Shown: in pieces, positions 1,218 through 56,155 of the stretch
Numbering within the stretch: the stretch's first letter is position 1
Layout of the letters: each line of letters opens with the position of its first letter
DNA from: Candidatus Kuenenia stuttgartensis
Lineage (GTDB): Bacteria; Planctomycetota; Planctomycetia; Pirellulales; UBA1268
Assembly (NCBI GenBank): GCA_945897435.1
Contig: CAMDFJ010000006.1
Span: 1 to 61,755 of the forward strand
Direction: 5' to 3'
DNA: 61,755 nucleotides
Position numbers and translations under genes: made by a program
Notes under the pieces: generated by a model
The model's input: only the letters and a program-made list of their open reading frames with translations
Told to the model about the DNA's origin: nothing
The model's database searches: none

Positions 1218-2330
1218 TTACCCTGCCGACCAATCCGGACGGGGTCGATCGTGGCTCCGGGAGTCTGCGGCGGTTGCCATAATCCGCTCCCGCACGCTGG
1301 CGACGGCCGGCCCCGTCAGGTGTTCGAGTTCCAGGGCGAAGGAGACACCCGCCCGGGGTGGCAGCGAAACCACCCTTCCCTGCGCCGCCTCGAACGACCT
1401 CGGATTCGGATAGTTCGTACCCGGTTCGAGCCCCGTGACATACCCGTCGGCGAGGCCGCCCTGATTCTTCCAGAGTGAAAAGCAGGGAAGCGTGTCGGAA
1501 CGCCAGGAGAGACAGACGGCATCACCGCCGCCAGGAGCGACGAGCATCGCCGACGCCCTGCCCGCCTCGTCCGACCGCAGCGCCATGAAGTGAACCTGCT
1601 CCGGCCGGCCCGGGCGTGACTCATCGTAGCGGTTCCAGGTCGGCACATCGGCTGCCGCTCCATGATCCCTCGGAGCCAGTTCCTCGACGGCGGCCACGAG
1701 TTCTGATCCGGCGCCGAGAAACGGCGGCCCGATGTTGACGTGATAGAGCATCTGCATCGTCGTCGGCCGATCCGAAAGGTTTTCGACCGTATCGACCCAG
1801 GAGACCCGCGGCCGATCGGCCTGCAGGGAGATCGAGGTCGTCATCCGCAGCGACTGGAACAGGAACCGCGTCTCGTCGACGGCGCCATGCAGCGTCACCC
1901 TGCCGGCCGCCTCGTCGAGCGTCACCTCGACCCCGTGGGCGGGGAGGTTGGCGATCCTCCCGTGCAGTGGGTGGAGAAGTCGTCCCTGCGGATCGAATTC
2001 CGGAGCCCCGTTGCTGACCAGACCGCAGCGGGCCACCAGTTCATCGAATCCCTCGAGCCAGCCGAGCCCGGAAGGATCGGTGATCGGCACGAACCGGGGA
2101 TGCACCGGCCCACGGACGGGCGACGACCAGCCGATGTCGGTGCCACCCGAGTTCATCCTCCAGATGCCGAGTCCTCGGTCGGGAAGCACCTGGGCCGTCG
2201 TCCCGCCGGCCGCAATCTCGACCAGCAGCAGGCCGTCCTGCAGGCCTCCCTGCAGCCGTCTGGTTCGGACGGCCAGCGGACCGATCGCCTCGTCCATTCC
2301 ATCCACAACAGTCAACCGCTTGAGGGCCAT
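1218..2330 (-). CDS. Aldose 1-epimerase-like / DUF4432 family protein
   Basis: C-terminal part of track ORF 1218..3113 from MALKRL; motifs LPDRGLGIW, GWLEGFDE, LHGRIAN, LYHVNIG, GYVTGLEPGTNYPN. Confidence 0.8.
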   Translation of the reverse strand: MALKRLTVVDGMDEAIGPLAVRTRRLQGGLQDGLLLVEIAAGGTTAQVLPDRGLGIWRMNSGGTDIGWSSPVRGPVHPRFVPITDPSGLGWLEGFDELVARCGLVSNGAPEFDPQGRLLHPLHGRIANLPAHGVEVTLDEAAGRVTLHGAVDETRFLFQSLRMTTSISLQADRPRVSWVDTVENLSDRPTTMQMLYHVNIGPPFLGAGSELVAAVEELAPRDHGAAADVPTWNRYDESRPGRPEQVHFMALRSDEAGRASAMLVAPGGGDAVCLSWRSDTLPCFSLWKNQGGLADGYVTGLEPGTNYPNPRSFEAAQGRVVSLPPRAGVSFALELEHLTGPAVASVRERIMATAADSRSHDRPRPDWSAG

Positions 2331-2348
2331 CTGCGAGCATCCGCAACA

Positions 2349-2386
2349 AGGTTCGGGGAACGCGGCGAGGTTCGGGAAACGCGGCG
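2349..2386. repeat. 19-bp tandem duplication AGGTTCGGG(G/A)AACGCGGCG x2
   Basis: 2349-2367 and 2368-2386 differ at one base. Confidence 0.8.
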
Positions 2387-2497
2387 GGAGTCTACCCTTC
2401 CGCTCGCTGTCCAGGGAACAACTCACTCCCGGAACTCCTCGATGGATATCAGCGAGGGGCTGCCCAAGCCCCGAGCGGGTTGTGAGTGTCGAGGCAT

Positions 2498-2519
2498 GAC
2501 AGGCTGAAGCCTGTCCCAC
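2498..2519 (-). repeat. REP-like palindrome GTGG-GACAGGCT-TC-AGCCTGTC, copy 1
   Basis: 8-bp perfect stem with 5' GTGG on minus strand; identical 22-mer at 10032-10053 and 40321-40342; identity with the 10 kb copy extends over 2495-2524. Confidence 0.85.
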
Positions 2520-2591
2520 ATCGGGACTGAAAAACCGCAAAAGCCGAAGATCGATAGACTGGCGTCGGACGAGAACGAAAGGAGACCGACC

Positions 2592-3377
2592 ATGAGCCCC
2601 ACAGCCACGCCGATCGCCATTGTGCTCGCTGCCGGTCGCGGCACCCGGATGGGAAGCGATCTGCCCAAGGTGCTCTCCGAAGCCGCCGGAAAACCACTCG
2701 TCCGCTGGGTGCTCGACGCGCTTGCAGCGGCAGGTGTCGAGGACCGGATCGTCGTCGTCGGGTATCGGGCCGAACTCATCGAGACGGCACTCGAAGGCCT
2801 GCCCGGTGTCTCGTTCGCGATCCAGCATGAACAACGAGGCACCGGCGACGCCGTCGCCGCGGCCCGGCCGCTCATCGAGCGGCGGATTGCCGGGCAGGGG
2901 GAGCGGCGGCCGGTCGTGGTCGTCTGCGGCGATTCCCCGATGCTTCGCCCGGAGAGTGTGACCGGTCTGCTCGACAGGTTCAGGGCTGGAAACGCCGCCT
3001 GCCTGCTGGGAACCGCCCTCACGACCGAGCCTGCCGGGCTCGGCCGGATCGTTCGCAATGCTGCCGGCCGGTTCGAGAGGATCGTCGAGGAAAAGGATGC
3101 CACGCCCGACCAACGGGCGATCCGCGAGGTCAACATGAGCACCTACGTGTTTGACGCCGCCGACCTTCTGCTGGCCCTCTCCAGGCTCGGCACCTCGAAC
3201 GCCGCGGGGGAGTATTACCTGACCGACTGTCCCGGTCTGCTCCAGACCGAAGGCCGGGTCGTCGACGCGATTCCCTGCCTCGATCCGAGCGAAACCCTGT
3301 CGGTCAACACTCCCGAGCAGTTGGCTGCGGTCGCGGCGGCACTCGCCCGGGTCCGGCCTGACCCGCGGGAGGCTTGA
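2592..3377 (+). CDS. GlmU-like nucleotidyltransferase (uridyltransferase domain only)
   Basis: LAAGRGTRMGSDLPKVL, QRGTGDAV, GLGRIVR, RIVEEKDAT, GEYYLTD; 261 aa with no left-handed beta-helix; SD GGAG upstream. Confidence 0.85.
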   Translation: MSPTATPIAIVLAAGRGTRMGSDLPKVLSEAAGKPLVRWVLDALAAAGVEDRIVVVGYRAELIETALEGLPGVSFAIQHEQRGTGDAVAAARPLIERRIAGQGERRPVVVVCGDSPMLRPESVTGLLDRFRAGNAACLLGTALTTEPAGLGRIVRNAAGRFERIVEEKDATPDQRAIREVNMSTYVFDAADLLLALSRLGTSNAAGEYYLTDCPGLLQTEGRVVDAIPCLDPSETLSVNTPEQLAAVAAALARVRPDPREA

Positions 3378-8910: not shown

Positions 8911-8941
8911 CAGCCTGCCACCGCTCCCCGGGAGACGGCGA

Positions 8942-9991
8942 TCAGGCCTCTCGCCCAGCCCGGCGGCCACCGCTGCGATCTGTACCGGGGGTGACGTCGA
9001 GTTCGAGATCGTCCTGTTCACCCCGTTCAAGACGCTCCCAGGCGATGGCTCCCATGGCGGCATTGTCGGTGCAGAGTTCCCGAGGCGGCACGAATACCGA
9101 CAGGCCTCGATTCCGACCCAGCCGTTCGAGCGACTCCCGCAGCAGCGTATTTGCCGTCACCCCGCCTCCGACCAGCAGCGAACGACAGCCTGTCCGCTCC
9201 AGTGCCAGCCCGACCTTTGCGAGGATTGCATCGACCGCGGCCTGCTGGAACGATGCCGCGAGGTCGGCCAGCCGCTGACCGGTCGGTGGCGGTGTGTCGG
9301 CAGCGGCTCCGGGCGGTCGCACGAGATATCGCAGGGCGGTCTTCAGGCCGCTGAAACTGAGATCGATCCGCGCCTGGTCGCTGGCCAGCGGCCGCGGTAA
9401 TCGATGGGCCTTCGGATTGCCACCAGTCGCCGCCCGTTCAATCTGCGGTCCGCCCGGATAACCGAGGCCGAGAAGGCTGGCCGCCTTGTCGAAGGCCTCG
9501 CCCACGGCGTCGTCGATCGTGCCTCCGAGTCGTTCGAGATCGAGCGGCCCCCGGACGCGGAAGAGCGACGTATGGCCTCCGCTGGCGACGAGTCCGACAG
9601 CGGGATAGAGGTCGGCGAGAGGGTATGCCAGCCGGCAGGCGTAGAGATGGGCTGCGATGTGGTCGTATCCGACGACCGGAATGCCGAGCGTGGCGGCGAT
9701 CCCCTTGGCGGCCGAAAGACCCACGAGCAGCGAACCGACGAGACCGGGCCTGACCGCCACGGCCACGGCCTCGAGTTGCTGCCGACCGATGCCCGACCGA
9801 GTCATCGCCTCGTCGATCACCGGAATGATCCGTTCGACATGTGCCCGGCTGGCCAGTTCCGGCACGACACCCCGCCAACGGGCATGGAGGGCGTCCTGAC
9901 TGGCGACCACGCTCGAGAGCACGAGGCGGTTTCGGGAGACGATCGCAGCGGCCGTCTCATCGCAAGTCGTTTCAATACAAAGCAGCGGCAT
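8942..9991 (-). CDS. tsaD: tRNA N6-threonylcarbamoyladenosine synthesis protein TsaD
   Basis: IETTCDET, GVVPELASRAH, HIAAH, SGGHT, DDAVGEAFDK, FSGLKT, CTDNAAM. Confidence 0.95.
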   Translation of the reverse strand: MPLLCIETTCDETAAAIVSRNRLVLSSVVASQDALHARWRGVVPELASRAHVERIIPVIDEAMTRSGIGRQQLEAVAVAVRPGLVGSLLVGLSAAKGIAATLGIPVVGYDHIAAHLYACRLAYPLADLYPAVGLVASGGHTSLFRVRGPLDLERLGGTIDDAVGEAFDKAASLLGLGYPGGPQIERAATGGNPKAHRLPRPLASDQARIDLSFSGLKTALRYLVRPPGAAADTPPPTGQRLADLAASFQQAAVDAILAKVGLALERTGCRSLLVGGGVTANTLLRESLERLGRNRGLSVFVPPRELCTDNAAMGAIAWERLERGEQDDLELDVTPGTDRSGGRRAGREA

Positions 9992-9999
9992 CGCGGAAA

Positions 10000-10005
10000 A
10001 GTCTA
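10000..10005 (-). promoter_or_regulatory. Putative -10 box TAGACT, 8 nt upstream of the tsaD ATG (leaderless-type spacing)
   Basis: Plus-strand AGTCTA at 10000-10005; ATG at 9991; no SD in between. Confidence 0.55.
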
Positions 10006-10031
10006 CCCGCCCGATGCGATGAGCGGCTCAT

Positions 10032-10232
10032 GACAGGCTGAAGCCTGTCCCACATCGGACAGAGGCCAGGGCCGGAGGCCCGGGTAAACACCAGCGACCG
10101 GAGGTCGCCAAGGAAAACTCGGCACGATGCCGAGATTTTCCGTGCAGCAGAGGCCAGGGCCGGAGGCCCGGGTAAACACCAGCGACCGGAGGTCGCCAAG
10201 GAAAACTCGGCGGGATGCCGAGATTTTCCGTG
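10032..10232 (-). repeat. Mosaic palindromic element: REP-like copy 2 (10032-10053) plus two tandem 85-bp units (10060-10144, 10148-10232; period 88), each with two hairpins
   Basis: Units differ at 2 nt at the loop of the long hairpin; hairpins GCGACC-GGA-GGTCGC and GGAAAA-CTCGGCA-CGA-TGCCGAG-A-TTTTCC. Confidence 0.9.
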
Positions 10233-10235
10233 AAT

Positions 10236-11399
10236 TCAGTAGTCGTACCAGACGCCGAAGCCGTAGCGGTTCTGGTTGTAGAACACGAACTCGTACTGCG
10301 GATCGGAGCCGTAGAGATATTCGAACCCGAGCCGGAACAGCTTCTCGCTGGCCCGTCCCCGCCAGGCCCAGCCCGTCTGCACGCAGATGTTGCCGCCCCA
10401 GTCGAGTTCCTGCCGGGTCATGCCGTTGACTGCCAGGAACGGCGTGCCCAATGCCCCGGTCGGCCGCGCCTGAATCAGTTCCGTGCCAAACTGAAATTCC
10501 CAGGGCTCCGAACCGCCGGCGTTGAAGAACGCCCAGCCGACCTCCCCGTAGAGTCGCATCCAGTCTCGCGGGTAATACGAGTTGCCCCAGACGATGCAGT
10601 CGCGGACGTAGTTGACCCTTGGAAAAGAGTGATACTTGAGCATTGCCTCGTCGCCGAGGTGGGCGCTGTTGTGATAGTAGGCGAGTTTTGTCTGCCAGCG
10701 GCCGACTCCATAGACGAGAGGAACACCAAACCGATAGTCACCCGACCGCAGATCGCGGTCATCCTCGGGGTCGAGTCGCACGAAGGCGGCACCCTCGACC
10801 TGCACCTCGAAGCCCTGCGGATGAACGACGGGATCGGATCCATACCGCAGGATCGAGACCCGACCGCCGAGCGTCGTGTCCCAAAGGGTGCCCTCTCGAC
10901 TGGAGGGCTGAAAGACTCCCGGGTCGGTGTCGAAATACATCACCGTACCGATCCGCGGCTCCTTGGGACCGGCGAGGTAACTCGTGTAGATCAGGTTGTT
11001 GGGCATGATCTGCCAGGACCAGGGTTCCGGCGCCCAGAGATCACCGATCCGATCGGACGGCAATTCATCGGGGGACAGCGGCCGCGATCGTTCCTCGGCG
11101 AACGGTTCGTAGACCACATCCGGAATCGCGCCGGGAAACATCGGATCCATCGAAGGCTGCGACTCCAGCCTCGCGGATGGCGGCGACGGGAGGGGGCTCG
11201 AAAGGCTCTCGGCCGGCGATTCCAGGGGTGTCGGGATATCGGCCGCCCTCCAGCCATCCTGGCCGTGGACTTCCAGATCAGAACCAGAGAACAGGCCGAG
11301 CATCAGCGTCACCGCCATTCCCACGATTCGCGCGCAGACGATCCGGGCCGCTGAACGGCGTTCGGACGACGAGACCGAGAGAGGTTGGGGCGTGGGCAT
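10236..11399 (-). CDS. DUF1207-like outer-membrane beta-barrel protein
   Basis: Signal-like N-terminus, YTSYLAGPKEPR, DYRFGVP, HNSAHLGDE, aromatic C-terminus YGFGVWYDY. Confidence 0.7.
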   Translation of the reverse strand: MPTPQPLSVSSSERRSAARIVCARIVGMAVTLMLGLFSGSDLEVHGQDGWRAADIPTPLESPAESLSSPLPSPPSARLESQPSMDPMFPGAIPDVVYEPFAEERSRPLSPDELPSDRIGDLWAPEPWSWQIMPNNLIYTSYLAGPKEPRIGTVMYFDTDPGVFQPSSREGTLWDTTLGGRVSILRYGSDPVVHPQGFEVQVEGAAFVRLDPEDDRDLRSGDYRFGVPLVYGVGRWQTKLAYYHNSAHLGDEAMLKYHSFPRVNYVRDCIVWGNSYYPRDWMRLYGEVGWAFFNAGGSEPWEFQFGTELIQARPTGALGTPFLAVNGMTRQELDWGGNICVQTGWAWRGRASEKLFRLGFEYLYGSDPQYEFVFYNQNRYGFGVWYDY

Positions 11400-40160: not shown

Positions 40161-40277
40161 GCGGATTCCTCCCTGGAGCGGCCTCAATCGGCGGGAAGCC
40201 TACCACGCGACCGACCGCCGCTGCCACGTCCCACGGCCGCAGGGGTTGGGAGCGAGCCAGCCGGCGGAGCCAGCCTA

Positions 40278-40437
40278 GGAAAACCGGACACGATGTCCGG
40301 GCTTTTCGTGAAGCACCCACGACAGGCTGAAGCCTGTCCCACTTCCGACAAGGGTTAGGCCAGGATGGCCGGGTCAGCACCAGCAACCGGAAGTTGCCAA
40401 GGAAAACCGGACACGATGTCCGGGTTTTCCGTGAAGC
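40278..40437 (-). repeat. Mosaic palindromic element: long hairpin (40278-40313), REP-like copy 3 (40321-40342), linker, short hairpin, long hairpin (40401-40437)
   Basis: GGAAAA-CCGGACA-CGA-TGTCCGG twice; GCAAC-CGGAA-GTTGC; homologous to 10032-10232. Confidence 0.88.
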
Positions 40438-40441
40438 CAGC

Positions 40442-41101
40442 TCACTCGCTGGCCCGATGGCGGACGATGTCCCCCTCCACCATGTAGATCACGTCCTCGG
40501 CCACGTTCGTCGCCATATCGGCAATCCGCTCGATGTGCTTCGAGACCGAGTTCACCCGCAGCAGGTTCTCGACGTTCTCAGGGTTTTGCTGGATGCCGCG
40601 AAGCACCTTGCGACGGATCTGCTGGCGACACTCGTCGACCGCGTCATCCTCCTCCCGCACCTGACGGGCAAGGGCGGGATCGGCGTTGACGACGGCATCG
40701 AGGCACTGCTTCACCATCTCCTGGGCCTGCATCGCCATCGAGCGGATCTCCGGCGGCATGTCACGGGGATCCTGATTGGCGAGTTGGCCCACCCGCTTGG
40801 CGATGTTCTTGGCGAGGTCTCCCATCCGCTCGAGATCGTTGTTGATCTTCAGCACGGCCACCACGAACCGCAGATCGGCCGCCACGGGCTGGTAGAGGGC
40901 GAGGATCTTGAGGCATTCCTCCTCCACCTCGACCTCCATCCTGTCGATCTCCTCGTCGTTCGCGGTGACCCGCTGGGCGAGGTGGACGTCGCGATTGATG
41001 AGCGCTGTGATCGACTTTGAAATCGCCTCCTCGACGAGCGTGCCGACGCGGAGGATCTTCTCCTTGAGCTGGTCGACCTGTCGTTCAATGTGGCGGGGCA
41101 T
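40442..41101 (-). CDS. phoU: Phosphate signalling complex protein PhoU
   Basis: LALYQPVAADLR, DLERMGD, IERIADMATNVAE. Confidence 0.95.
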   Translation of the reverse strand: MPRHIERQVDQLKEKILRVGTLVEEAISKSITALINRDVHLAQRVTANDEEIDRMEVEVEEECLKILALYQPVAADLRFVVAVLKINNDLERMGDLAKNIAKRVGQLANQDPRDMPPEIRSMAMQAQEMVKQCLDAVVNADPALARQVREEDDAVDECRQQIRRKVLRGIQQNPENVENLLRVNSVSKHIERIADMATNVAEDVIYMVEGDIVRHRASE

Positions 41102-54743: not shown

Positions 54744-54892
54744 GACCGCATCTTACAGGAGGAGCTTCTCCATCCCAAAGCGGAACTGATCTCGACCTCC
54801 TCCCCTCCCAGGCACCCGGCAGTGCCGGGTTCTTGCCAGCGGGCGGAACTGGCCAGGCCGTGCCGGCCGTGACGCCCTGATTTTGCCGGAAT

Positions 54893-56155
54893 CTAATACC
54901 GAGCCTCGAAGCCGGCGAATCCGCCGTGGATGATCGTGCTCGAGCCGGCAGTGATGCCCGAGAGGTCGGCGGCGGTCGTGACGTCGCCCGGCCACTGCCC
55001 ATCAGCCTGGGCGATGTTGCCGACTCCGACCACGCGATATCCGACCGACAGGCTCCAGTGATCGGTCACGTCCCAGGCCAGTCCCGTGTCGGCCGATCCC
55101 AGCCAGGAGAAGACGCCGAGCGTCGAGTGGACGTTGACGGGAGCACCGGAGGCAAACACCGCCGGCGTCCCCGTCGACGTGGCCAGTGATGAGGTGTTGG
55201 TGATCGTGTTGCCTGCAAGCAGGAACTTCGAAACCGTCGAGAACCGCACCCGGGGGAGGAGTCGCCAGTCAAACTTGGCCCCCAGCTGTCCGCCGTAGAG
55301 GTTGTTGTTGGTGGCCACGGCGAAGTCGAGCGGAGTCGCCGCCAGCGCCGGGTCTCCTGAGGTGGTGGCGAGCGTCAGCACGTCCTCCAACTGGAAGAAG
55401 CGGAAACCGGCCAGCCAGATCAGGCTCATCGGCCGACTGCCGTCGGCGGGATCCCGGGAAAGAAACTCCGGCCGGTCGCCGGGCGCGTACAGCCAGTTCA
55501 CCTCGATATCGTTGACCAGATCGGACCGGCTGATCTGCTGGGCCGTGGCGCCGCTCAGGTAGTCGGCCGCCGGCAGGCCGCCGACTGTCGCGTTGCTCGC
55601 CTGAGGTATCGCGTTGATGCCGCTGCCGGATACCGCAGCGCTCGAGTCCATTCCGTAGACACCCCAGTAGATGAATTCGACGGCGTTCCGCTGCTGGGGG
55701 CCGAACCAGCGGCCGATGTGGAGGTCGACGCCGCCCGGCCAGGACACCGCAGCGGAGGAGGTCCGGAGCTGCGTCACCCCGGCGAGCGGTTGCATCGTCG
55801 GCGTCCCGGCGGGAAGCGTGCGGGTCATCACGAGCCCGGTTGCACCGGCGAACCAGCGTGGCCACTGCGGTGGGGCGGCGGGCAGCACCGCGGCCGGCAG
55901 TCCTGCGAAGGCATCGGTATCGAGTGGGTCGGGCACGTAGAGCGGCACGGGAGTCGGAACAGGCTCGACGGCTGCAGGAGGAGCGTCGATCGCGGCGGCG
56001 ATGCTGGGCAGCGGTTCGGCCTCCGCTGAAACGGAAACCTGCGCCCATGCCAGCAGAACAGCCATCGCCGCACAGACCACCGCTGCGGCGGCCGGGCCGC
56101 GGCAGACCGGCGATGATCGGGCGTGATCGAAGGCTGTCGACATCTGGAAGGCCAT
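54893..56155 (-). CDS. BBP7-like outer-membrane beta-barrel protein
   Basis: Signal peptide; LAGFRFFQLED, NNLYGGQLG, VGYRVVGV, C-terminal HGGFAGFEARY. Confidence 0.7.
   Translation of the reverse strand: MAFQMSTAFDHARSSPVCRGPAAAAVVCAAMAVLLAWAQVSVSAEAEPLPSIAAAIDAPPAAVEPVPTPVPLYVPDPLDTDAFAGLPAAVLPAAPPQWPRWFAGATGLVMTRTLPAGTPTMQPLAGVTQLRTSSAAVSWPGGVDLHIGRWFGPQQRNAVEFIYWGVYGMDSSAAVSGSGINAIPQASNATVGGLPAADYLSGATAQQISRSDLVNDIEVNWLYAPGDRPEFLSRDPADGSRPMSLIWLAGFRFFQLEDVLTLATTSGDPALAATPLDFAVATNNNLYGGQLGAKFDWRLLPRVRFSTVSKFLLAGNTITNTSSLATSTGTPAVFASGAPVNVHSTLGVFSWLGSADTGLAWDVTDHWSLSVGYRVVGVGNIAQADGQWPGDVTTAADLSGITAGSSTIIHGGFAGFEARY

Follow-up and report, generated by a model that had tools for sequence, protein, structure and literature searches.

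The intergenic region at positions 10,032 to 10,232 of contig CAMDFJ010000006.1 (assembly GCA_945897435.1, listed as Candidatus Kuenenia stuttgartensis) is made up of hairpins and ends at the stop codon of a minus-strand gene, which raises the question of whether it is an RNA motif serving that gene or a copy of a repeat dispersed over the genome. The window analyzed here is the entire contig (C6; 61,755 nt), and the genome comprises 3.02 Mb in 205 contigs with 66% G+C and a completeness estimate of 96%. An earlier interpretation made from the letters alone, referred to below as the sequence-only reading, had compared this region (locus 1) with positions 40278 to 40437 (locus 2) and had proposed either an element resembling bacterial interspersed mosaic elements (BIMEs) or an RNA motif of 3' untranslated regions. 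We consider it fairly likely (probability of about 0.7) that the two loci are copies of a dispersed, noncoding mosaic repeat of the repetitive extragenic palindrome (REP)/BIME type that carries a new module, rather than locus-specific RNAs. This interpretation draws on observations of copy number, distribution, covariation, presence and absence at orthologous sites, array polymorphism, docking on stop codons, and association of the REP with a transposase gene in a sister species. The new module, designated U, is a previously undescribed three-hairpin unit of a kind that is already known, namely, selfish or half-tamed DNA in the form of small structured repeats scattered over a genome, with REP/BIME, BOX, and ERIC as examples. 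Rfam yielded no match in the window at gathering thresholds and only two chance-level matches (E values of 0.37 and 0.43, far below gathering) in 11 kb around five repeat loci. A literature search on REPs and repeat elements in Planctomycetes or Pirellulales returned general REP and HUH surveys only and nothing on U, and one on REPs near termination codons returned reviews of translation rescue only.

Both loci contain the ordered module that had been described, a REP hairpin followed by U. At locus 1, the REP (10032..10053, plus strand) has a 7-bp stem, GACAGGC/GCCTGTC (10032-10049), with a TGAA loop. Next comes CCAC, which is GTGG, the REP tag, read on the other strand; the canonical REP orientation, with the tag 5', is thus on the minus strand. 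Two copies of U follow on the plus strand: copy a at 10063..10150 (H1, 10069-10081; H2, 10094-10108; H3, 10112-10141; then GTG and the junction CAGCAG; 97.5 bits) and copy b at 10151-10238 (H1, 10157-10169; H2, 10182-10196; H3, 10200-10229; then GTG, AAT, and the stop codon; 102.7 bits). The two are tandem 88-base duplicates with 97.6% identity, a duplication that the sequence-only reading had not mentioned. At locus 2, a partial U on the plus strand (approximately 40244..40310) has a degenerate H1, an H2 with one mismatch (40260-40274), and an H3 (40278-40307) followed by GTG; it covers profile positions 13 to 78 and scored 56.5 bits for 40226-40321 with the covariance model. Downstream lie a REP (40321..40342, plus strand; GACAGGC, TGAA, GCCTGTC, CCAC; hairpin, 40321-40338) and a full U (approximately 40354-40440, plus strand; H1, 40358-40370; H2, 40383-40397, with a C.A mismatch at the top; H3, 40401-40430; 97.5 bits), which ends with GTG and the tail AAGCCAG.

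In its full form, U is about 88 bases long and consists of three hairpins, each with a loop that on one strand reads GGA or CGA and is nearly constant. The conserved single-stranded joints CCAG, CGGGT..ACCAGC, CCAAG, and CGTGAA separate and bound the hairpins. The compensatory differences that had been quoted for the short and long stems were found exactly so. The short H2 stem is GCGACC/GGTCGC at locus 1 and GCAACC/(A)GTTGC at locus 2, and the long H3 stem is CTCGGCA/TGCCGAG and CCGGACA/TGTCCGG, respectively, on a common GGAAAA/TTTTCC base with a CGA loop. The stretch AGGCCAGG..CCGGGT, previously taken for a linker, turned out to be a hairpin itself (H1), which also differs between the loci in a compensatory manner (GGGCC-GGA-GGCCC versus GGCCA-GGA-TGGCC).

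Covariation was tested on a three-hairpin structure of 24 pairs against 500 shuffles, and as a control the 3' partners were slid by 1 to 3 columns, which lowered pairing to 25 to 51% in every set. The covariance model R1 is based on 21 copies chosen by hand, 3 of them from the window and the other 18 from about 100 elsewhere. In this set, 91.9% of the cells were paired, 12 of the 24 pairs showed changes on both sides, and none of the 500 shuffles reached the score of 0.365 (shuffle mean, 0.121). Larger sets behaved alike. With 44 copies from 21 genomes, 97.3% of the cells were paired and 17 of the 24 pairs had changed on both sides (shuffles, 0 of 500; slid controls, 25 to 51%). The corresponding values for 93 distinct copies from public metagenome-assembled genomes (MAGs), taken among the matches listed, were 96.5% and 17 of 24 (shuffles, 0 of 500; slid controls, 25 to 47%), with 355 doubly changed cells versus 105 in shuffles; these two alignments were fitted to the structure of the model, the public set was chosen by a pattern that fixes the H3 tip, and the copies are related by descent, so that cells are nonindependent events. 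More than 20 different H3 stems were found, every one of them pairing. The expectation that additional copies would covary was thus borne out strongly in all three alignments.

The type of base pair is informative about the molecule under constraint. Among the 44 copies from 21 genomes, 991 pairs were Watson-Crick, 6 were G:U, 6 were A:C, and 22 were other combinations; the 68 parsed units of this genome gave 1,572, 15, 15, and 30, and the public MAGs, among the matches listed, gave 2,040, 30, 11, and 64, with a single H1 pair supplying 12 of the 30 G:U. Wobble pairs thus make up about 1% and are roughly as rare as their mirror image, the A:C mismatch. Since G:U is as rare as A:C, the hairpins under selection are probably DNA rather than RNA; the pattern points to perfect complementarity in DNA or to an equal constraint on both strands, not to an RNA made from one strand.

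This bears on the alternative that U serves in the first place as RNA in 3' untranslated regions, be it as a terminator, an mRNA-stabilizing hairpin cassette, or an insulator between genes, and that selection on the RNA structure maintains it while its copying is incidental. Such an element would be expected to fold stably, as U does on either strand: predicted folds of U-bearing stretches reached -38 to -42 kcal/mol, equally good for both strands, with z scores of -2.5 to -4.3 relative to shuffled sequence (-2.1 to -2.5 for a short REP stretch). The H3 of all four window copies also fits the pattern of an intrinsic terminator on both strands, with 4 matches per 700 nt versus 0.3 to 0.6 in shuffles. 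However, the low frequency of G:U is unlike that of typical structured RNAs, and a T-run (T4) behind H3 on both strands, which was present in 36 of 72 units here, occurred in only 2 of 36 and 4 of 89 units elsewhere. U is therefore probably not a conserved intrinsic (bidirectional) terminator, the T-run being peculiar to the variants of this genome.

The sequence-only reading had allowed for the case that only two copies exist. A search with R1 returned 106 U matches in the 3.0-Mb genome, far more than chance would yield, and iterated nhmmer returned 107 U and 163 REP matches; exact REP cores numbered 116. Only 9 of the 163 REP matches fell within crude gene calls, the copies being mostly intergenic. 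The matches formed 149 clusters; 73 lacked U, and 62 of these consisted of just one REP, and the other 76 contained U. By hand count of the listing, a REP lay within 60 nt in 57 of the 76 U clusters, typically in the layouts REP-unit, REP-unit-REP, or (REP-unit)n-REP, in direct orientation. In these mixed clusters the REPs were direct in 42 of 57 cases and inverted in 15 (hand count), and doublets in REP-only clusters were direct in eight and inverted in three. The description as BIME-like thus held for the mosaic of U with REPs and failed for inverted REP doublets as a rule, arrays being mostly direct REP-unit-REP. Truncated forms of U recurred, covering profile positions 13 to 78 or 1 to 71. 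Elsewhere in the window, positions 54803 to 54900 gave a weak covariance-model match to U (26.7 bits; E value of about 1e-3), which may be a decayed copy or due to chance.

U was detected by R1 in all 15 other genomes of the same genus (14 to 102 matches each) and in 5 of 9 other genera of the family (5 to 89 matches), and it was detected in none of the 16 other families searched within the order. The exact REP core was likewise present in 15 of 15 genomes of the genus (33 to 557 copies), with only 0 to 3 copies in other genera, including a genome with 89 U matches and 3 REP cores. Counts were uncoupled within the genus as well, with 102 U and 33 REPs in one genome and 17 U and 425 REPs in another. 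Because U is more widely distributed than the REP core and the two counts vary independently, U is, on comparative grounds, best regarded as a family of its own that appears older than this REP variant. A scan for the joint motifs in one genome per prokaryote species returned at least 110 stretches, of which 80 loci were kept. Among the matches listed, 78 of these 80 were also matched by R1, and the record labels were mostly Planctomycetota, chiefly Pirellulales or Planctomycetia MAGs and including several "Kuenenia" and "Planctomicrobium." Three labels among them were nonplanctomycete; two of these loci had no model match, and the third, a full match labeled Chitinophagaceae, may lie on a misbinned contig.

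The REP is the better known of the two partners. Among 102 tagged copies in the genome, the tag directly 5' of the stem was GTGG in 99 and GTAG in 3, and in canonical orientation the loop was TTCA in 87. The search definition given by Quentin et al. (2018, PMC6006769) calls for GTAG or GTGG located 0 to 2 nt 5' of a fully paired 7- to 20-nt stem with a loop of 2 to 5 nt. The module conforms to this GT[AG]G definition in its tag, fully paired 7-bp stem, 4-nt loop, and many mostly intergenic copies. These features assign it to the GT[AG]G REP superfamily, the type of substrate used by REP-associated tyrosine transposases (RAYTs; TnpA-REP, HUH/Y1).

Genes of the corresponding family (PF01797) were found in five of six sampled genomes of the genus (in G002 only at the cutoff); across the family, 27 of 60 relatives had such a gene. 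In one sister genome, G009, a 175-amino-acid Y1_Tnp open reading frame (locus L097, 1758-2285; 33.6 bits; cutoff, 23) shows the motifs HVHLV, WQ, and YVEFNP. Arrays of the REP described above, GTAG-tagged there, lie on either side of this gene, and together they have the composition of a REPtron, to which we assign them on sequence features. The RAYT link that the sequence-only reading had drawn is therefore upheld for the REP module through this sister-species gene and is not seen in the present assembly, in which no RAYT was found. Other Y1 (IS200-like) genes were noted in relatives at L218 and L219 (G023), L221 (G010), and L098 (G004; 1650-2620). Among such genes, some are associated with 24- to 38-nt inverted repeats about 740 nt apart, and two of the 16 examined have long terminal inverted repeats. 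A 192-amino-acid Y1 gene (HVHVV and Y....Q motifs) lies amid a different long hairpin repeat (AAGCCCGAGGCGT.AGCCGA...). This is the one Y1 gene with a U about 130 nt downstream, a proximity within chance expectation.

The position of U relative to genes is strongly biased. Full units numbered 76, and for 54 of them a gene was identified on either side; the other 22 could not be placed (20 at contig edges and 2 inside gene calls). In 44 of the 54 placeable units, the H3 end pointed toward an opposite-strand gene at its 3' end (P = 1.7e-6), 20 lay between convergent genes, compared to a background share of 18%, and only 2 lay between divergent genes, all of these counts being approximate. The placement is also precise. 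The minus-strand genes, identified by Pfam as DUF1207 at locus 1 (49 bits) and PhoU at locus 2 (161 bits), have their stop codons 3 nt (TCA, 10236-10238) and 8 nt (TCA, 40442-40444), respectively, from the final GTG of U. At locus 1, the DUF1207 stop TGA and the preceding C (10236..10239, minus strand; TCAG as read on the plus strand) lie at a fixed offset from the end of U. Throughout the genome, 22 of 51 outer H3 ends had CTA, TCA, or TTA exactly at +5 to +7 after ...CCGT, whereas the background frequency is 1.5% (P = 1e-26). For 19 of these 22 docked ends the frame was open for at least 80 codons, and two of the other three were cut by contig ends. In the public MAGs, among the matches listed, 19 of 78 ends were docked on a stop, and the frame was open to the end of the flank in 18 of the 19. 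Comparison with relatives placed the stop at the native position of the gene in three U-docked cases (locus 1 and the relatives' L030 and L024); in a fourth comparison, L043, it was the REP's own GTAG that overlapped the stop. The remaining outer H3 ends have the tail AGCAGCC or AGCATCC, as links U to the next REP inside arrays.

Docking near stop codons is a behavior already known for REPs, according to the account of Di Nocera et al. (2013, PMC3733652). In this genome, C-TAG stops were occupied about 10 times more often (11 of 105) than C-TGA stops (9 of 767). As separate observations, the tetranucleotide CTAG is very rare genome-wide (372 sites in 3.0 Mb, including 105 TAG stop codons preceded by C), and stop codons in the crude gene calls were TGA in 1,388, TAG in 413, and TAA in 135 cases. 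An account of docking by target sequence only was rejected: although C-TGA is found at thousands of positions other than stop codons, the TCAG-type ends are almost all located at true ends of genes, so that a tetranucleotide preference alone is insufficient. The terminal Y-A-G may be part of the element or of the target.

Position immediately behind stops, the strong orientation bias, and the near absence of U from divergent intergenic regions are what a 3' untranslated RNA element would also show. The same data bear on the proposal that U provides binding sites or decoys for CsrA-type proteins, with three GGA loops about 27 nt apart as in sponges of the CsrB/RsmZ type. CsrA prefers GGA in hairpin loops, and GGA is near constant in H1 and H2 and is the most frequent H3 loop (35 GGA, 19 CGA, and 4 CTA in 58 parsed units). 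Moreover, the 3-Mb genome encodes three CsrA homologues (92, 74, and 62 bits at C78:8046-8201, C23:3148-3291, and C3:20061-20231; loci L215 to L217). However, GGA would be present only on RNA in plus orientation, whereas transcription from the adjoining gene would, for 44 of 54 units, yield the opposite strand, with UCC loops. CGA or CTA replaces GGA in one third of the H3 loops, orthologous sites do not conserve the copies, and U almost never lies in 5' leader regions. We consider this proposal very improbable.

Comparison of orthologous sites showed that the repeats come and go. Both genes flanking locus 1, DUF1207 and the downstream tsaD (start codon at 9991), were located in 14 sister genomes. 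As the sequence-only reading had suggested checking, empty sites exist: in 8 of the 14 sister species the DUF1207 stop and the tsaD start are 2 nt apart. The remaining six hold 85 to 199 nt of unrelated hairpin-rich sequence, and the REP-unit-unit array, a 244-nt insert, was found in this genome only. The 40 nt or so that separate the tsaD start from the REP (9992..10031) are also missing at the empty sites, and they have no second copy elsewhere in the genome. The region downstream of phoU is hypervariable, with a mix of REPs, U, a 190-nt module, and other repeats that differs in every species; in four sister genomes the two genes flanking this locus matched different contigs. The reverse comparison started from 13 colinear sites where a relative carries U. 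In this genome, three of them hold U (two distinct sites), two hold a REP only, and eight hold neither; seven of these eight were inspected as alignments.

These findings are difficult to reconcile with U being primarily an RNA element, because orthologous sites are mostly empty or hold other repeats. In addition, two terminator-like hairpins have been inserted between DUF1207 and tsaD, genes that are 2 nt apart in eight sister species, which is hard to square with efficient termination. The occupation of some sites in several species does speak for an RNA function. On balance, and with G:U no more common than A:C, we regard this explanation as unlikely, and the 3'-untranslated RNA motif is thus the weaker of the two possibilities originally put forward.

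Array length also varies below the species level. At locus 1, a related strain, represented by contigs from two public runs that belong to different studies, has 77 letters instead of 157, an array shorter by one U. The larger of the two contigs (run X4) has flanks with 28 differences from the window in 450 letters and 8 in 494. DNA contigs of the public runs showed array-length polymorphism at this locus together with a very high summed depth over the repeat. In distant genera (L039 of G022, L040 of G020, and L041 of G018; positions of about 1160 to 1760), U lies behind a co-oriented gene, on its H1 side, and after it the final 30 nt or so of the upstream gene, including the stop, appear once more together with the start of U. 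Because gene end and U start are duplicated together, arrays probably grow by tandem duplication with arbitrary break points.

Multiple noncoding copies of variable presence would also be expected of a conventional miniature transposable element with inverted repeats (MITE) moved by a DDE transposase encoded elsewhere. Elements that look MITE-like are indeed present in this genome, since a different module, some 190 nt long and bearing long inverted arms at its ends, accompanies REPs at about 15 loci. U itself, by contrast, has no terminal inverted repeats, its ends CCAGG... and ...CGTGAA being unrelated. It shows no consistent target-site duplications, and the direct repeats around U in other genera are the tandem duplications just described, which include gene ends and the U start. 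A MITE identity for U was therefore rejected for its lack of inverted termini, and movement by a DDE transposase is highly improbable.

This module of about 190 nt lies directly upstream of the REP at about 15 of 17 pattern-matched loci and has a MITE-like look. Its inverted arms (GGGGTTGCCCGTG... / ...CACGGGCAACCCC) show compensatory variation, and an internal hairpin resembles H1. Examples, all of them outside the window, include locus L099 (C93:1-900) at about 200 to 411 and sites on C96, C109, C112, C61, C29, C136, and C160; three copies submitted to Rfam gave no match.

The sequences of the stems provide a further view of turnover. The two main H3 variants account for 31 and 16 of the 58 parsed units here and were absent from 122 copies of other genomes, and each of the two main H2 stems was seen with each of the two main H3 stems (17, 12, 10, and 6 units for the four pairings). 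Because H3 stems are lineage specific and occur with either H2 stem, it appears that the family has been amplified or homogenized in each lineage and that copies exchange parts. Another repeat, about 100 nt long (...GGCGAGCGGGTCGGCGGAAGCTCG...GACTTCTGCCGCC...), occurs at both hot spots in several sister species; it was seen at L053, L055, and L059, the orthologues of 9992-10235, and at L072 to L074, downstream of phoU. As this repeat occupies both hot spots, different repeat families seem to colonize the same intergenic sites in different species. In the vicinity of locus 1, the 31-nt spacer between the convergent dnaB and tsaD stops (8911-8941) is free of U here, and in sister genome G011 a U lies directly behind the dnaB stop (TAG followed by CTTCAC...), followed by other repeats.

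We propose the following working for a dispersed mosaic repeat. The hairpins would form in single-stranded DNA, and a RAYT, as present in sister species, would cut and rejoin segments bounded by REPs, with U traveling in the same arrays. Local tandem duplication would make the arrays grow and shrink, and recombination or gene conversion would exchange stems among copies. If only variants with perfect Watson-Crick hairpins spread, the compensatory pattern would result. Copies are retained almost exclusively at gene 3' ends, the H3 end being docked directly on the stop codon of the opposite-strand gene. Once transcribed, a copy would place stable hairpins in the 3' untranslated region, where they may protect or end the mRNA; such an effect is a possible secondary one and not the reason why the family is conserved.

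Several observations weigh against this reading. PF01797 had no match in the 205 contigs of this genome, which is estimated to be 96% complete, and U flanks none of the 16 Y1-transposase loci that were examined in relatives with the covariance model. U does not depend on this REP, since it is found in genera in which the REP core is absent or nearly so. Neither terminal inverted repeats nor a clear target-site duplication was found at U, no transposition event was observed directly, and presence and absence could partly reflect deletions. In the public MAGs, G:U (30) exceeded A:C (11), so that a weak strand preference is possible. Two sites, on contigs C30 and C167 of this genome, are occupied in several species, so that some U copies are vertically inherited and may be kept for a function. 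It should also be noted that genes were called by a crude codon-bias caller, on which the orientation counts depend, and that two pairs among the 51 outer ends have identical flanks, each pair probably being one locus assembled twice.

A bolder possibility is that U is a self-standing single-stranded DNA element that docks on stop codons by a C-T-R tag, comparable to the GTAG of REPs, and is moved by its own HUH-type or other hairpin-specific enzyme, or that it supplies genome-wide sites for one CsrA paralogue. This suggestion is made because U is older and more widespread than the REP, its GGA tips are near constant and its joints conserved while the stems are free, and it docks on stops with single-nucleotide precision. 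Although we judge it distinctly unlikely, a self-standing U would, if true, define a class of stop-docking single-strand DNA elements in Planctomycetes.

For the dispersed mosaic repeat that we favor, comparison with other small repeats is instructive. BOX elements of Streptococcus pneumoniae, ERIC, and Correia elements are modular, multihairpin, intergenic repeats that are often transcribed with their neighbors, and we know of no transposase of their own for repeats of this type. The family described here shares with them modular, ordered subelements of varying number, without any sequence relationship, and differs by its REP partner, its docking on a stop at a single nucleotide, and its constant loop triplet. 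Nonautonomous elements derived from IS200/IS605 have subterminal hairpins and a one-sided target sequence. The composite found here similarly has a hairpin near each end (H3 and REP), Y1 transposases occur in the genus, and a flank is conserved on one side only, reading on the sense strand of the gene C-T-R, about two bases, TTCAC, and the H3 stem. The difference is that no Y1 gene was found between ends of the H3 and REP types; the conserved flank may belong to the element or to the target.

The GT[AG]G REPs and RAYT REPtrons, as they are portrayed in two surveys (PMC3733652 and PMC6006769), resemble the present system in that the REP module is high copy, is extragenic, and flanks in a sister species a Y1/HUH gene with WQ and Y..NP motifs. 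U itself differs from such REPs in its length of about 88 nt, its three different hairpins, its lack of the GT[AG]G tag, and its wider distribution than this REP, and the assembly of this genome differs from REPtrons in showing no RAYT. BIMEs and REP doublets forming hairpins (REPINs) are outlined in the second survey (PMC6006769) as mosaic clusters between gene ends, variable between strains, in which REPs alternate with other conserved motifs. The likeness to the BIMEs of Escherichia coli and the REPINs of Pseudomonas accordingly lies in mosaic layout, strain variability, and position between gene ends. Their defining unit is two inverted REPs, whereas most arrays here are direct REP-unit-REP, and the motif between REPs is a large structured module instead of a short linker.

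Bacterial genomes are shaped by small structured repeats, which break assemblies, separate cotranscribed genes, and alter the 3' ends of mRNAs, and for most families the mobilizing enzyme and the benefit to the host are unknown. The U family offers a clean natural data set in this respect, with dozens to about a hundred copies per genome in a family of uncultured freshwater planctomycetes, many independent compensatory stems, constant loops and joints, empty and filled orthologous sites, and a candidate RAYT in sister species. It also accounts for part of the fragmentation of these MAGs, and a covariance model of U would allow annotators to mask it.

The stretch occurs in public sequencing runs whose records describe them as metagenomes of lake-water, aquatic, freshwater, groundwater, or unspecified type, and related public MAGs have been labeled by their depositors as Pirellulales, Planctomycetia, or Planctomycetaceae bacteria. 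Finally, the window contains a solo REP of identical type (2496..2524, plus strand) within a long open reading frame on the minus strand (1218..3113), a crude gene call; either this reading frame is overextended or the REP is intragenic.

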